In this document: in pieces, positions 9,408 through 61,074 of the stretch
Numbering within the stretch: position 1 is the stretch's first letter
How the letters are laid out: every line of letters starts with the position of its first letter
Sequence record: OQ938542.1
Strand: one strand, 5' to 3'
Length of the DNA stretch: 64,000 nucleotides
From: Escherichia phage vB_EcoP_PE007
The notes under the pieces: generated by a model
Told to the model about the DNA's origin: nothing
Seen by the model: only the letters and a program-made list of their open reading frames with translations
The model's database searches: none
Program-made: the position numbers and the translations under genes

Positions 9408-9716
9408 ATGACACAGAAATTACGTGTATGGCACATTCCCCAAATGCCAATGAAGGCATTTCATGTAGAAACTGATAGTCTTCAGGAAGCTGTTAAGATT
9501 AAGAATGCGTTAGCAGACTATGACCTATTCCAGTATGAGAACAATGTCAAAGGCGATTATGCTAATGCTAACGGTATTGAGATGTGGGATGAGTCCCTCA
9601 CTGACCAAGACCTTATTGATAGGGAATTGGAGGACCGTTGGGTAGATTGGTATATTGAAACTGAAGACGATTTCTTTGATGACCCAGAAGAATATCTGAA
9701 TTATCTAATCAAGTAA
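9408..9716 (+). CDS. acidic hypothetical protein
   Basis: 102 aa, strongly acidic C-terminal half. Confidence 0.5.
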   Translation: MTQKLRVWHIPQMPMKAFHVETDSLQEAVKIKNALADYDLFQYENNVKGDYANANGIEMWDESLTDQDLIDRELEDRWVDWYIETEDDFFDDPEEYLNYLIK

Positions 9717-9769
9717 GTATGATTGCTTTATTTGGGGTTATAAACCCTGAAATGAAACCCTCAAGTTTG

Positions 9770-9798
9770 ACCTCCCTATTGAAGGGAGGTCTTTTTTT
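9770..9798 (+). terminator. intrinsic terminator
   Basis: acctccc/gggaggt stem plus ttttttt. Confidence 0.7.
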
Positions 9799-9823: not shown

Positions 9824-10012
9824 ATGTACAAAGAGATTGCGTTTTTCTCATTCTTACTAGGTGGTTTGATAGGTGCAGGATTTGTAGCTATTTCTAATAC
9901 CTACTTTGGTTCTACTCCAAACTCTGTAACACAAACCCTCAAGCATGAATGTGAATTGAATATCCCTCGTAATCAAAACTGTGTAATGCAGTTCGTACCG
10001 GAGAAGAAATGA
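9824..10012 (+). CDS. small membrane protein
   Basis: 62 aa with hydrophobic N-terminal segment. Confidence 0.45.
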   Translation: MYKEIAFFSFLLGGLIGAGFVAISNTYFGSTPNSVTQTLKHECELNIPRNQNCVMQFVPEKK

Positions 10013-10269
10013 ATATTCATAATCTACATTTGGTTGAAAAACTGTATGAAGAATACAACGACAACCGACAGCAATTAGCTAGTTTGAAGAAAGCTCCACA
10101 TATGGTGAAAGTATCCTTTTACGATAAGGATTTAGGACCGCAAGCTCGTACAAGAATACTACCTGAGCTACTGTCATTTTATCAAAATAAGGTAGATGAC
10201 TTAGAGAAACGCCTGAAGCATTTAGGTGTAGATTTATCAACGCTACCGGATGAAGGAGAAGATGAGTGA
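10009..10269 (+). CDS. hypothetical protein
   Basis: 86-aa ORF, overlapping start/stop. Confidence 0.5.
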   Translation: MNIHNLHLVEKLYEEYNDNRQQLASLKKAPHMVKVSFYDKDLGPQARTRILPELLSFYQNKVDDLEKRLKHLGVDLSTLPDEGEDE

Positions 10270-10475
10270 AAGTAACAAATCGTTCTGAGAACAATGAGGT
10301 AACTTTCGGTGATGTGGAGCCTGCTAATGGTTTTATTTATAACCAGACAGTGTGTTTAAAGATTCACTTACCTGATGGTAAACCTGCTGCTGTTGCTGTA
10401 GAAACTGGTAAATCATTCTGTCTATCTGCAAGTACATTCGTAACACCAATAAACCTGGAAGGATATTACCTTTGA
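10266..10475 (+). CDS. hypothetical protein
   Basis: 69-aa ORF. Confidence 0.45.
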   Translation: MKVTNRSENNEVTFGDVEPANGFIYNQTVCLKIHLPDGKPAAVAVETGKSFCLSASTFVTPINLEGYYL

Positions 10476-10657
10476 AATTAACACAGTCCCAAGCAATCTT
10501 CCTTCGTATGGTTCAAGGTGGCTCTGCCACCAGCAACCGTAATAACAAAACCGCACAGTCTCTTAAAAAGCTGGGCTTAGTTCAGTTCAATACTGGTCTT
10601 GGGTGGTCATTAACCCCTATCGGTGTACTTCAACTCAACGAAATGAAAGGTAACTAA
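10472..10657 (+). CDS. hypothetical protein
   Basis: 61-aa ORF. Confidence 0.45.
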   Translation: MKLTQSQAIFLRMVQGGSATSNRNNKTAQSLKKLGLVQFNTGLGWSLTPIGVLQLNEMKGN

Positions 10658-10987
10658 ATGAAAACTTTACTTAAAGGTATTGCAGTAGCTGCACTGATAG
10701 CTTTGGCCCCAAGTGCACAGGCAATTGAACCAGAACCAATTCTGGAAGGTGCTCAGGCTTACCTGGATGACACCCGTGATGTGTTCGGGCAAGGGTTCTT
10801 CATGGGCAGCATGGTTGCTTACATTGAGAACACAAATAACTGTGTTCCTGATGGTATTAAGTATTCAAGCATTCTGCCTAAGATTGCCAAAGTAGTTATT
10901 TATGACTCTGCGATCCTTAAGATGAAGAATACATCTCAAATTATTGCGTACTCAGTGCACAAGGCATATCCCTGCACCAAATCTTAA
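10658..10987 (+). CDS. secreted/periplasmic protein with signal peptide
   Basis: 109 aa; N-terminus MKTLLKGIAVAALIALAPSAQA is a classic Sec signal with AxA cleavage site. Confidence 0.5.
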   Translation: MKTLLKGIAVAALIALAPSAQAIEPEPILEGAQAYLDDTRDVFGQGFFMGSMVAYIENTNNCVPDGIKYSSILPKIAKVVIYDSAILKMKNTSQIIAYSVHKAYPCTKS

Positions 10988-14019: not shown

Positions 14020-14055
14020 GTGAAGAAACTAACTCAACCCCACATAGGAACCATC

Positions 14056-14298
14056 ATGGAATCTTTAGCAGCAATCCTTGTTATGTTGTTTGTATTAGCT
14101 GTATACCTTATCCCTACTATCATTGCTTTCTCACGAGGCCATGCCTCTAAGTGGGGTATTGGTGTGCTTAATATCGTATTAGGCTGGTCTTTAGTCTTCT
14201 GGGTAGTAGCACTGATTTGGTCGCTGTCCAACAAAGGACAGAACCAAGTTACAAATGTAACTGTTGTCCAAACCAATGGTGGCAGTAAAGCAGAGTAA
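14056..14298 (+). CDS. superinfection-immunity (Imm)-like small membrane protein
   Basis: ATG 14056 with AGGAA RBS; 80 aa, two hydrophobic helices; IPTIIAFSRGH...NIVLGWSLVFWVVALIWSL pattern recalled for Imm family. Confidence 0.5.
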   Translation: MESLAAILVMLFVLAVYLIPTIIAFSRGHASKWGIGVLNIVLGWSLVFWVVALIWSLSNKGQNQVTNVTVVQTNGGSKAE

Positions 14299-15237: not shown

Positions 15238-16181
15238 TGATTAAGGCATCAGTAATTGCAGATTCCGTTCATCCAGAAACAGGAACCCGTATCACAACCT
15301 TTGAATTGGTTTATCCCCGATTCATTCACAGTGAGTTTATGACTCACCGTGTATTCAACCGCAATGCTTCAAGTAGCCGTGCTATTCCTACCTCTAAGTT
15401 AATCGAACAGGTTCGCAATGAACCAGTGATGCCAAGTCACTGGGGCAAGAACCAGAAAGGTATGCAAGCAGATGAAGAACTCACTCCTATGGAGATTGAG
15501 GATGCTAAGTTTATCTGGGATAACGCTGCATCTGCTGCTGCTGTGTATGCTGAACAGCTACGTCGTGGGCAAGTACATAAGCAGATTGTTAACCGCATTC
15601 TGGAACCATTCACTCATATCCGTGTAGTAGTAACTTCAACTAGCTGGGCTAATTTCTATGGACTGCGTGACCACAAAGATGCACAGCCAGAGATTCGTGA
15701 ACTGGCTCAAGCAATGCGTATGGCACATGAAGAAAGTACACCAAGGGCATTACCATATGGACAATGGCATCTGCCATATGTTGCTCATATTGATCGTGTT
15801 GGGGCTTACAATTTCTGCAAACGCAATCGAATTACACGCGATGAACCAAGTGATGCAGAAGTGCATGGACTACTCCTCAAAGTAAGTGCTGCACGCTGTG
15901 CCCGTGCCTCATATAACAACTTTGAGGGACGCCCTTCTACTATCGAAGAAGATCTTGGCTTATTCGCTAAGTTAGTAGAAAACCAACCTATTCATGCTTC
16001 TCCAACGGAACATCAGGCTACACCTATGAACCTTGGTGAGAAGTATGTGAATAACATGAACCCAGTTACCTGGGAACAAGGTGTTACATCCATGGATAAA
16101 GAAGGGAATCTGTACTCAGGTAACCTGCTCCACTTTATCCAATTCCGTAAATTAATTCCTGGTGAGACTATTACTGAATGA
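15237..16181 (+). CDS. thyX: thymidylate synthase, flavin-dependent (ThyX-like)
   Basis: 314 aa; THRVFNRNASSSRAIP resembles the ThyX RHRx7-8S signature. Confidence 0.5.
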   Translation: MIKASVIADSVHPETGTRITTFELVYPRFIHSEFMTHRVFNRNASSSRAIPTSKLIEQVRNEPVMPSHWGKNQKGMQADEELTPMEIEDAKFIWDNAASAAAVYAEQLRRGQVHKQIVNRILEPFTHIRVVVTSTSWANFYGLRDHKDAQPEIRELAQAMRMAHEESTPRALPYGQWHLPYVAHIDRVGAYNFCKRNRITRDEPSDAEVHGLLLKVSAARCARASYNNFEGRPSTIEEDLGLFAKLVENQPIHASPTEHQATPMNLGEKYVNNMNPVTWEQGVTSMDKEGNLYSGNLLHFIQFRKLIPGETITE

Positions 16182-16417
16182 AAAAACTAGCTCTATACGC
16201 AATGCTAATTAGTACCCTACTAACACTGACCTACGCATACAAAGTTGCCTTTGTCGTAGAAACAGATATGCAGTTCATTCGAGCTAGTATTCTGTTCTTT
16301 GTAAGCGAGATTGGTTTATGGTGTGTTTACTACTTTGCTCGTGACTACGAAGCAATTCGTGAGCAAGAAGAAGTGAAAAAACAAATGATACGATTTGTAG
16401 AACAAAATCGTAAGTAA
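16178..16417 (+). CDS. small membrane protein
   Basis: 79 aa with hydrophobic segments. Confidence 0.45.
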   Translation: MKKLALYAMLISTLLTLTYAYKVAFVVETDMQFIRASILFFVSEIGLWCVYYFARDYEAIREQEEVKKQMIRFVEQNRK

Positions 16418-59951: not shown

Positions 59952-60458
59952 TTATTCCTGTTCAAAAAGTTTACGGTCAGCCTGGATCTGTTTACCCAAC
60001 TCAATTAGTTGGCTGTCACGGAGTCTAACAGTTGCCCTGAGTTCTTCAACCAAACGTCTGCCTTCTTCAAGATTGTTGTCGAGTCTGGCTGCATGGCTTG
60101 CAAGACTTCTGCACTCAAAGGTTCCGGTTTCGGCTTGACGTTTATATACCGATGCTCGTCTTTCAGACTGTTGCATCCGGCTGTCATAATCACTGCTAAC
60201 GCGAGCAAGCTCGCTTGCGTAATTACTCTCAGCCGTCTGCAACCGGGAAGTGAGTAACCCGACTTCATAACTATGGTTTCTTTGGAGAGCATTGTATTTG
60301 TCCTGTAATTTTTGTGTTGCCTTTTGGTCTTCAACCTTTTGGGCATCCCACTTCTTTTGAACAGTAGACTGTCCGTTGGAATTACCCCAAAAGTAAATGG
60401 TGGCCCCGAGGACCACCACTAGAAGATAAGGCCAACCTTTAGAGATTAGCATCTTCAT
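59952..60458 (-). CDS. i-spanin (Rz-like)
   Basis: ATG 60458 with GGAGG RBS; N-terminal TM ([21 protein letters not shown]) then coiled-coil periplasmic domain; contains embedded lipoprotein ORF. Confidence 0.55.
60005..60268 (-). CDS. o-spanin (Rz1-like lipoprotein) embedded in i-spanin gene
   Basis: alternate frame inside 59952-60458; signal peptide plus lipobox-like ...[12 protein letters not shown]; Pro-rich mature part. Confidence 0.5.
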   Translation of the reverse strand: MKSGYSLPGCRRLRVITQASLLALAVIMTAGCNSLKDEHRYINVKPKPEPLSAEVLQAMQPDSTTILKKADVWLKNSGQLLDSVTAN

Positions 60459-61074
60459 TACATGCCTCCAGTGGCACATTGCCTATTCGGTTAGCTATCC
60501 AACCATACGTAAAGTCTGGCATGTTTAATGAGGTGTAGTGGTTCAGTTGTTTAGCATCTAGTAACTTAATCATTACCCGACATGCTGCAACTTTGCCTCG
60601 TTTTTTCTGTAATGCTTTATATGCATTAACAGTACTTACACCGACTTTACCATCAACCTGTATTTTAGGGTAGTCTTTGCCATCACGGGACATTTCATTA
60701 AGAGATTGCTGTAACCACTTAGCCGGACGAGTTACACCAGTGTTAACACCGGCATCTACCAGCTTGTGTGTTACAGCAGGAGATATATCAGCGAAGGCTA
60801 CGAAGTTAGGCTTAAGTACGTAGTCATCGATGTATATCTCAGCAGCCATCTCTTTAGATAAACCCTTCATAGAACCATCCCAGCCGTACTCAGTAGCCAG
60901 AACTTCTTTATGGGATTTAGCTACAGATTGGGTAATTCCATGATTAGTTTCCCCACCTGGGTCACGAGGATTATTTACATAACCCCCTTCCATATAAAAC
61001 ACTGCCCCCAGGATAGCAGCGACAACTCCTCCCACTGCACCACCTTTCGCAGCAAGTTTCTGTTTAGCTTTCAT
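60439..61074 (-). CDS. endolysin, GH108 N-acetylmuramidase with N-terminal signal-anchor and C-terminal peptidoglycan-binding region
   Basis: 211 aa; EGGYVNNPRDPGGETNHGIT is the GH108 hallmark; N-terminal Gly/Ala-rich weak TM GGAVGGVVAAILGAVFY. Confidence 0.7.
   Translation of the reverse strand: MKAKQKLAAKGGAVGGVVAAILGAVFYMEGGYVNNPRDPGGETNHGITQSVAKSHKEVLATEYGWDGSMKGLSKEMAAEIYIDDYVLKPNFVAFADISPAVTHKLVDAGVNTGVTRPAKWLQQSLNEMSRDGKDYPKIQVDGKVGVSTVNAYKALQKKRGKVAACRVMIKLLDAKQLNHYTSLNMPDFTYGWIANRIGNVPLEACNEDANL

Follow-up and report, generated by a model that had tools for sequence, protein, structure and literature searches.

The window analysed here, a 64,000-nucleotide (nt) stretch of DNA from Escherichia phage vB_EcoP_PE007 (OQ938542.1), carries at positions 10658..10987 a gene for a 109-amino-acid (aa) precursor whose product was assigned to the Rap1a/Tai4a family (PF18602, IPR041238), the bacterial members of which are periplasmic immunity proteins against the Tae4/Ssp1 peptidoglycan amidases that rivals inject by type VI secretion; judged from its sequence, the protein is a divergent member of this family, and the assignment is firm once its relatives are used. 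The favoured reading, which by analogy with characterised family members is given a probability of about 0.4, is that this Rap1a-like protein would act as an orphan periplasmic immunity protein of a virulent N4-like phage and would block an external peptidoglycan amidase, most likely one belonging to a type VI secretion system (T6SS). Protection against T6SS was ranked first because it is the only activity demonstrated for the family, and because it explains both the orphan status and the allelic diversity of the gene.

The sub-threshold match of the window protein to PF18602 spans nearly the whole model. Furthermore, nine of nine orthologues matched PF18602 at E ≤ 1, the best of them at 1e-6, and a precomputed PF18602 match exists for protein P0086. 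A profile built from phage sequences only was searched with HMMER against 1.84 billion representatives, and 26 proteins were recovered at E < 1e-3. An extended alignment of 31 sequences was assembled, 11 from phages and 20 from the representative search; 27 of the 31 match PF18602 at E ≤ 0.01 (best 8.6e-20), and the non-phage members are typical Rap1a-domain proteins bearing signal peptides. When the phage-only profile was compared by hhalign with 14 bona fide family members, a probability of 99.6% and an E-value of 1.9e-23 were obtained over 105 columns. In tblastn searches, Gamaleyavirus genes were reached directly from a bacterial Rap1a-domain protein, of which 99% was covered by alignments at 32-33% identity. 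Searches of the PDB with the single sequence or the phage-only profile revealed nothing relevant, and only the extended profile reached Tai4 of Agrobacterium tumefaciens (6IJF/6IJE, E 1.8e-4) and Rap1a of Serratia marcescens (4BI8/3ZFI, E 1e-3); both cysteines are aligned in these matches. NCBIfam is without a model for the Rap1a/Tai4a family and gave noise matches only.

Structure prediction with AlphaFold2 (AF2) was performed with the orthologue alignment and with the mature domain alone. In the former model residues 1-20 are unpacked, with a predicted local distance difference test score (pLDDT) below 50, while the mature part exceeds 90; the mature domain alone reached a pLDDT of 93.5 and a predicted template-modelling (TM) score of 0.84. 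The five modelled helices span residues 26-37, 42-58, 69-82, 84-88 and 92-103 of the precursor. Foldseek comparison with the PDB gave query TM-scores (TMq) of 0.58-0.69 to 6ije, 6ijf, 3zfi and 4bi8, and only chains of Rap1a and A. tumefaciens Tai4 scored above 0.5, all remaining PDB chains being at or below 0.42. Membership of the main Tai4 family (EcTai4, STTai4 and the Rap2a fold), whose fold has a protruding loop that enters the active site of Tae4, was considered and rejected, as no chain of that family was present among the Foldseek PDB or profile matches. The main Tai4 proteins, which include Tai4 of Enterobacter cloacae and Salmonella Typhimurium, Rap1b, Rap2a and Rap2b, are small helical dimers of the periplasm that carry a conserved cysteine pair and block Tae4 amidases sterically (PMC3852654, PMC3695027); the fold of Rap1a ("Tai4a") is different from that of E. 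cloacae Tai4, Salmonella Tai4 and Rap2a (PMC3852654), and so is the fold predicted for the phage protein. Because the Rap1a fold is distinct and no chain of the main family was matched, the "tai4" label on phage orthologues is imprecise, whereas "Rap1a/Tai4a" is accurate.

Rap1a (SMA2260) is the "Tai4a" immunity protein of S. marcescens to the T6SS effector Ssp1, and its structure is known (3ZFI, 4BI8). It has a 26-residue signal sequence and five helices, and its folding requires a disulfide that joins Cys78, located in the alpha2-alpha3 loop, to Cys122, close to the C-terminus; it forms a stable dimer, mainly through alpha2, and in a 2:2 complex blocks the active site of Ssp1 sterically (PMC3852654). 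The phage protein shares with Rap1a a signal sequence, a five-helix mature domain of about 90-100 aa, a glycine-containing alpha2 segment, and a pair of cysteines, one in the alpha2-alpha3 loop and one in a C-terminal [FY]PC motif. The phage cysteines, Cys62 and Cys106, are 44 residues apart, exactly as are Cys78 and Cys122 of Rap1a, and a disulfide between them is likely by this alignment. The most conserved part of the mature phage protein, QG[YF]FMG, is aligned to R62-G67, the alpha2 segment of the Rap1a dimer interface. The AF2 model superimposes on Rap1a with TM-scores of 0.55-0.66; however, identity in the structural alignments is 6-11%, the residues with which Rap1a contacts Ssp1 are not kept in the phage protein, and the phage gene has no adjacent Ssp1/Tae4 effector or T6SS gene and occurs as many divergent alleles in a virulent carrier. 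A. tumefaciens Tai4 (6IJE; Tae4-Tai4 complex 6IJF) is the best profile match and also the best structural match (TMq up to 0.69), and has the same cysteine pair and a C-terminal FPC motif; dissimilar from the phage gene, which has no cognate effector, it is chromosomal, linked to a T6SS and accompanied by its cognate Tae4.

The precursor has the features expected of an exported protein when inspected with sequence rules. The n-region, MKTLLK, has a charge of +2, with two lysines and no acidic residue; the h-region, GIAVAALIALA, reaches a mean of 3.1 in a 9-residue Kyte-Doolittle window; and the c-region contains the helix breaker P18 and A20-Q21-A22 at the -3/-1 positions, followed by I-E-P-E, so that cleavage is predicted at A22|I23. 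The mature protein would comprise 87 aa, with a mass of about 9.6 kDa and an isoelectric point of 5.7. These observations bear out what the earlier note had read from the sequence, namely a clear Sec signal peptide with an AQA motif on a 109-aa protein and two cysteines in the mature part; Cys62 and Cys106 are the only cysteines of the protein. Sequence rules found neither a lipobox nor a second hydrophobic segment in the 109 aa, and a lipoprotein or membrane-anchored protein was therefore ruled out. The signal peptide and both cysteines are retained in orthologues that are only 35-45% identical. A crude signal-peptide heuristic applied to all open reading frames (ORFs) of at least 40 aa in the window gave 19 hits including 10658..10987; most of the others are short ORFs that were judged spurious by eye, without a formal test, and besides an endolysin with a signal-arrest-release-like N-terminus and a 79-aa protein, 10658..10987 is the hit that resembles a genuine exported protein. 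The 79-aa ORF (16178..16417, + strand) has an N-terminus resembling a signal peptide or signal anchor (MKKLALYAMLISTLLTLTYA) and a second hydrophobic stretch, without a Pfam match, and its product is a further candidate for an envelope protein encoded in the middle region.

Relatives of the gene were found in 56 phage records and, from assemblies, in more than 120 protein clusters, and the protein falls into PHROG 11132, of unknown function (E 5.5e-60). The pairwise ratio of nonsynonymous to synonymous substitution rates (dN/dS) is 0.13-0.18 within allele types, compared to 0.04-0.05 for the gp24 ATPase gene and 0.21-0.24 for the small upstream gene; 10658..10987 is therefore a real, constrained gene that is under purifying selection within allele types. 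It is very improbable, for these reasons, that the gene is non-functional as an exported protein, either as a chance ORF or as the gene of a cytoplasmic protein with a hydrophobic N-terminus: it is conserved across over 50 phage records and over 120 protein clusters, its fold is modelled confidently, its signal peptide is kept across alleles that are 35% identical, and the Rap1a family is periplasmic and disulfide-dependent (PMC3852654). The features of the gene and its surroundings are listed in the table.

Features of the Rap1a-like gene and its surroundings in the window
Feature	Coordinates	Strand	Basis or remark
Terminator-like hairpin, 9-bp stem followed by T7	9769..9791	+	Likely 5' limit of the transcription unit
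Shine-Dalgarno-like AAAGG	10646..10650	+	7 nt 5' of the ATG; read from the sequence
Coding sequence of the 109-aa precursor	10658..10987, stop codon included	+	ATG start; gp17.3 position of G7C; PHROG 11132
Predicted Sec (signal peptidase I) signal peptide, aa 1-22, MKTLLKGIAVAALIALAPSAQA	10658..10723	+	Heuristic; conservation among alleles; AF2 pLDDT <50
Divergent cassette core	10668..10967	+	Nucleotide identity to G7C/Moonfish about 35-60% inside, ≥90% on both sides
Mature 87-aa domain, predicted five-helix Rap1a/Tai4a fold	10724..10984	+	AF2, Foldseek, hhalign
Codons Q45-G50 (QGFFMG), most conserved motif of the family	10790..10807	+	G46 and G50 invariant; aligned to Rap1a R62-G67
Codon of Cys62, alpha2-alpha3 loop, motif NC[VI]P	10841..10843	+	Invariant in 31/31 of the extended alignment; aligned to Rap1a Cys78
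Codon of Cys106, C-terminal motif AYPC	10973..10975	+	Invariant; aligned to Rap1a Cys122; predicted disulfide partner of Cys62

Apart from its family, the gene stands out most by its strong divergence between phages whose flanking DNA is nearly the same. In 30-nt windows, identity stays at or above 90% as far as about position 10667, which covers the first codons (MKT(L)), lies at 35-60% through about position 10967, and is back at 90% or more once the last codons (AYPCxKS) are reached. Compared to G7C, the Rap1a-like protein of the window is 37.0% identical, whereas the upstream 61-aa protein and the gp24 ATPase are 95.1% and 96.6% identical, respectively; the corresponding values for Moonfish are 45.4%, 93.4% and 96.6%. 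Clustering of 127 proteins resolved the genes of G7C-like phages into at least seven allele types that share less than 65% identity, and identity among these alleles is 33-60%. The commonest allele is the G7C type, the window type has 12 members, and five further types occur in other N4-like contigs. Three remoter relatives, sharing 23-35% identity over the mature part, are encoded on phage contigs, two of them clearly N4-like; an AAA ATPase gene adjoins in all three, and DUF2201 and dCTP deaminase genes are in the neighbourhood in two. These contigs suggest that the Rap1a-like gene has been kept more widely among the N4-like phages. Recent adaptive change was considered and was not detected by pairwise dN/dS, the within-type values denoting purifying selection; the diversity is regarded as old and as moved by recombination. 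Altogether, because of the wider N4-like retention and the purifying selection within types, the pattern resembles long-standing, balanced diversity that recombination has reshuffled, as is usual for genes whose antagonist is polymorphic.

A search with the phage-only alignment revealed no relative among 185,579 representative bacterial genomes, and the same search of IMG/VR recovered G7C-like phages only; no recent bacterial donor was therefore identified. Furthermore, no DNA match to the Rap1a-like gene was present in 5,426 complete E. coli genomes, indicating that the gene was not captured from an E. coli host or prophage.

Other Rap1a-like sequences were observed beyond the G7C-like phages. 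On two N4-like metagenomic contigs (L008, 4322-4654; L010, 1403-1723), the Rap1a-like gene abuts the 3' end of a gene for a 249-250-aa AAA protein (PF00004/PF07724), which takes the neighbour role in place of the gp24-type ATPase gene downstream, so that an ATPase is a recurring neighbour. On three bacterial contigs (L012-L014, 6001-6333), a bona fide Rap1a-domain protein (P0133) is encoded alone, without an adjacent effector, and is flanked by resolvase/invertase and tail-fibre-like genes and, at the opposite end, by a phage-type integrase gene. By these flanks the P0133 gene is a prophage or island moron; the contigs are not from E. coli, and only the invertase matches E. coli genomes. In a 1565-aa protein of the representative library (P0126), six separate stretches match residues 31-73 of the phage profile (E 1.7e-9), and this protein may be a repeat protein built of alpha1-alpha2 segments. 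Weak tblastn matches of a bacterial Rap1a protein (E 2e-4 to 8e-4) were also obtained in Cronobacter phage ENT47670 (HQ201308.1, 34295-34564), where the match lies in an unannotated stretch, and in Bacillus phage Dartukuta (MW749009.1, 56593-56883), an odd result for a phage of a Gram-positive host. Rap1a-like genes may be commoner in phages than current annotation indicates.

A cognate enzyme for the Rap1a-like protein was sought in the phage. No adjacent Tae4/Ssp1 amidase or T6SS gene was found, the neighbours being small ORFs and genes for an AAA ATPase, a DUF2201 protein and a dCTP deaminase. Pfam scans detected no NlpC/P60, CHAP or Tae4 domain in the gp51-gp57-like virion proteins, the 3590-aa virion RNA polymerase (vRNAP), the tailspike or the products of the lysis genes, and the annotation of the close relative St11Ph5 contains no amidase. 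Since no cognate amidase is detectable in the phage, the Rap1a-like gene is, as far as these searches reach, an orphan member of its family, and the target of its product would therefore have to come from outside. Two targets within the phage were considered and rejected. Control of the phage's own endolysin has no visible target, because the endolysin, a GH108 muramidase that also carries a PG_binding_3 domain, is not an amidase; self-exclusion through a virion amidase likewise has no visible target in the Pfam scans of the virion proteins and vRNAP. The endolysin gene itself (60439..61074, - strand) encodes a lysine-rich, glycine/alanine-rich, hydrophobic N-terminus (MKAKQKLAAKGGAVGGVVAAILGAVFY) that resembles a signal-arrest-release anchor.

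The following course of events is proposed for T6SS protection. The gene would share the transcript of the rightward middle-class block, which comprises the genes for the gp24 ATPase, gp25 and dCTP deaminase, as synteny and operon structure suggest, and the precursor would be exported by Sec and cleaved after A20-Q21-A22, as predicted from its sequence. In the periplasm, the 87-aa domain would fold into the modelled five-helix bundle with a C62-C106 disulfide, as in the Rap1a alignment, the formation of which presumably depends on DsbA; by homology, it would probably dimerise through helix alpha2 and its QG[YF]FMG motif. As family membership suggests, the dimer would bind a papain-like peptidoglycan DL-endopeptidase/amidase of the NlpC/P60/CHAP class (Tae4/Ssp1 type) and block its active site sterically. 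The most likely source of this enzyme would be the T6SS amidase effectors of neighbouring enterobacteria, or of sister cells once host expression has been shut down. The wall of the infected cell would thereby be kept intact until the phage holin and the GH108 endolysin trigger lysis. Different alleles would neutralise different effectors, and the expected pattern would be that of the at least seven divergent alleles swapped between near-identical flanks. Still more tentatively, virulent N4-like coliphages may carry a cassette of T6SS-immunity-type inhibitors in which each allele is directed against a different amidase, whether of rival bacteria or of the host's kin after the shut-off of host immunity expression, either of which would otherwise cause premature lysis of the infected cell, or of a competing phage's entry apparatus.

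Several points weigh against this proposal. The window protein alone scores 15 bits against PF18602 (E 0.035), below the gathering score of 27.7, and the Foldseek E-values of 0.4-5 are not significant alone, so that the evidence from fold counts only jointly with that from sequence. Per-position variability is higher at the equivalents of the Rap1a-Ssp1 interface (1.56 bits) than at those of the dimer interface (0.97 bits), a weak hint, in favour of the proposal, of a variable binding face, but this mapping of interface residues rests on an alignment of about 10% identity and on few positions. A T6SS immunity protein usually acts with high specificity on its cognate effector, and any benefit of T6SS immunity inside a single lytic cycle is hypothetical. 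In addition, no T6SS immunity function was found reported in the literature searched for any phage gene of the Rap1a/Tai4a family.

The earlier note had pointed, for early-expressed periplasmic proteins of phages in general, to superinfection exclusion or receptor masking as frequent roles. The description of an exported, cysteine-containing protein encoded in the early/middle block has stood, while the function now indicated is different and more specific, that of a family of hydrolase inhibitors. Superinfection exclusion received no direct support here, and is kept as the main rival in a form similar to T4 Spackle, in which the exported protein would inhibit the virion cell-wall-degrading enzyme of a superinfecting or competing phage and so stop that phage from getting through the peptidoglycan; this is considered unlikely. 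Spackle (gp61.3) is the closest functional analogue among phage proteins, being a phage-encoded, early, Sec-exported, small helical periplasmic inhibitor of a peptidoglycan hydrolase, the gp5 lysozyme, and so provides a precedent (PMC7677548); its exclusion role is demonstrated. However, its target gp5 is a muramidase and not a cysteine amidase, it has no detectable similarity to the phage protein in sequence or fold, and it was absent from the PDB sequence and fold matches. The deep allelic diversity in a swappable cassette would suit an arms race between phages as well, and exclusion gains appeal from two other genes of the window, one for a T4 Imm-like membrane protein and one matching PF17420, which parallel the Imm and Sp pair of T4. 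Yet action on phage enzymes is not known for any PF18602 protein, and the virion proteins and vRNAP, which have no NlpC/P60, CHAP or Tae4-like domain, offer self-exclusion no visible target. The Imm-like protein (14020..14298, + strand; 92 aa) matches PF14373, "Superinfection immunity protein", at E 7.5e-17. The product of the other gene (9408..9716, + strand) is 102 aa long and matches PHROG 1510 and, at E 1e-44, PF17420 ("Superinfection exclusion gene product 17"); the gene is present in St11Ph5, PGN829.1 and U1G and missing from G7C at that position, and the hairpin at 9769-9791 lies downstream of it.

The protein could instead be turned on the host. E. coli possesses periplasmic enzymes of the papain-like NlpC/P60 superfamily, and inhibition of one of these hydrolases (e.g., MepS/Spr, MepH or NlpC) might modulate host wall metabolism or the timing of lysis, freezing wall remodelling so as to stabilise the envelope or delay lysis in the long N4-type infection. 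The known targets of the family are papain-like peptidoglycan endopeptidases of the NlpC/P60/CHAP class (PMC3852654), the gene is grouped with middle genes, with which it is probably co-transcribed, and the phage has rIIA/rIIB-like genes, as annotated in St11Ph5. Nevertheless, both this role and its supposed effect on the wall are quite improbable, as conserved host enzymes do not explain at least seven alleles at 33-60% identity, and the phage endolysin is a muramidase and not an amidase. Alternatively, the Rap1a fold may serve as a scaffold for an unrelated periplasmic partner such as a receptor, a porin or a Tol/Pal component. The low identity to characterised members (6-11% in structural alignments), the sub-threshold Pfam score and the poor characterisation of the family beyond two effector-immunity pairs would all allow this, but the protein retains all of the defining structural features of the family and nothing points to another partner; such a role is doubtful. 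It would include the receptor masking of the earlier note, for which no direct support was obtained, the Rap1a/Tai4a family pointing to inhibition of a cell-wall hydrolase. Known receptor masks, e.g., Llp of T5, are lipoproteins, and a protein of 9.6 kDa that is soluble in the periplasm and has no lipid anchor would be an unusual one.

For T6SS protection, a parallel is provided by the orphan immunity genes of mobile elements, such as the acquired interbacterial defence clusters of Bacteroidales and those in Serratia and Vibrio. These genes are likewise without effectors, horizontally exchanged and polymorphic, and they are thought to be protective against non-self effectors (e.g., PMC12247911, PMC10539506). 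They differ in that their carriers are chromosomes, integrative and conjugative elements or prophage-like islands of the bacterium that is protected, whereas here a strictly lytic phage is the carrier, and the cell that it would protect is the one that it kills.

The window DNA around the gene is 91-95% identical to that of Escherichia phages St11Ph5, IME11, ECBP1 and Bp4, with G7C more distant, and by this comparison the window phage is a Gamaleyavirus, an N4-like podophage of the Schitoviridae (G7C/St11Ph5-like). As annotated in G7C and St11Ph5, the RNAP2 subunit genes and the gene for an Ig-like decoration protein precede the gene at the gp17.3 position, and directly 3' of the Rap1a-like gene are those for the gp24 AAA ATPase, the gp25 DUF2201/VWA protein and the dCTP deaminase. 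This placement, in a rightward early/middle block between the RNAP2 genes and gp24-gp26, agrees with the early/middle region named earlier. ORFs are tightly packed or overlapping from 9824 through the Rap1a-like gene into gp24, gp25 and the dCTP deaminase gene, and no convincing terminator was found between 9824 and gp24-gp26, where the single weak 5-bp match lies inside gp24. Synteny and this operon structure together argue for co-transcription of the Rap1a-like gene with the gp24-gp26 block, which is of the middle class by synteny with N4. In addition, the TAA of the upstream 61-aa gene abuts the ATG of the Rap1a-like gene, which suggests that the two are translationally coupled.

Small genes of this region were also recorded. 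The first gene past the terminator-like hairpin, at the head of the unit containing the Rap1a-like gene, is an ORF of 62 aa (9824..10012, + strand) with an N-terminal transmembrane helix, two cysteines in its C-terminal part and no Pfam match; its product may be a second envelope-targeted protein. Two ORFs of 86 aa and 69 aa follow (10009..10475, + strand; PHROGs 19185 and 18793, function unknown), which are absent from G7C and Moonfish; U1G has the 86-aa one. From its gene content, the stretch of small genes between gp17 and gp24 is a mosaic hotspot.

The family label of the gene pre-exists in some databases, and no functional study of the gene was found. UniProt names the orthologues of Bp4 and SP5M "Rap1a immunity protein domain-containing protein", GenBank uses "tai4" in the records of 24-32N, PBM-2/3 and the UE series and "Rap1a, IPR041238" in that of Moonfish, and one metagenomic entry has a Rap1a label derived from the PDB; most GenBank records, including those of G7C, St11Ph5, IME11 and Bp4, state "hypothetical protein". 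Literature searches on phage Tai4/Rap1a, on phage-encoded T6SS immunity and on Gamaleyavirus with Tai4 revealed no relevant study, and the text of the paper on phages UE-S5a and UE-M3, whose GenBank records contain "Tai4", does not mention the gene.

Gamaleyaviruses are candidates for therapy and biocontrol, and the "tai4" and "Rap1a" labels in their recent records are uncommented; the correct assignment, to the Rap1a/Tai4a fold and not to the main Tai4 fold, is useful for these records, with function predicted only. The at least seven natural alleles between near-identical flanks, each a single 330-bp gene, form a ready-made panel for the study of specificity. If the protein blocks the enzymes of other phages, it would be a second, unrelated solution to the problem solved by T4 Spackle. 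If the cassette does consist of T6SS-immunity-type inhibitors, this would be the first lytic phage to defend its virocell with an immunity protein of interbacterial warfare. Neutralisation of T6SS amidases, if true, would link phage infection to contact-dependent bacterial warfare, with the lytic phage profiting from a host made transiently immune to the weapons of its neighbours, and the allele carried by a phage would mirror the attackers that its host meets.

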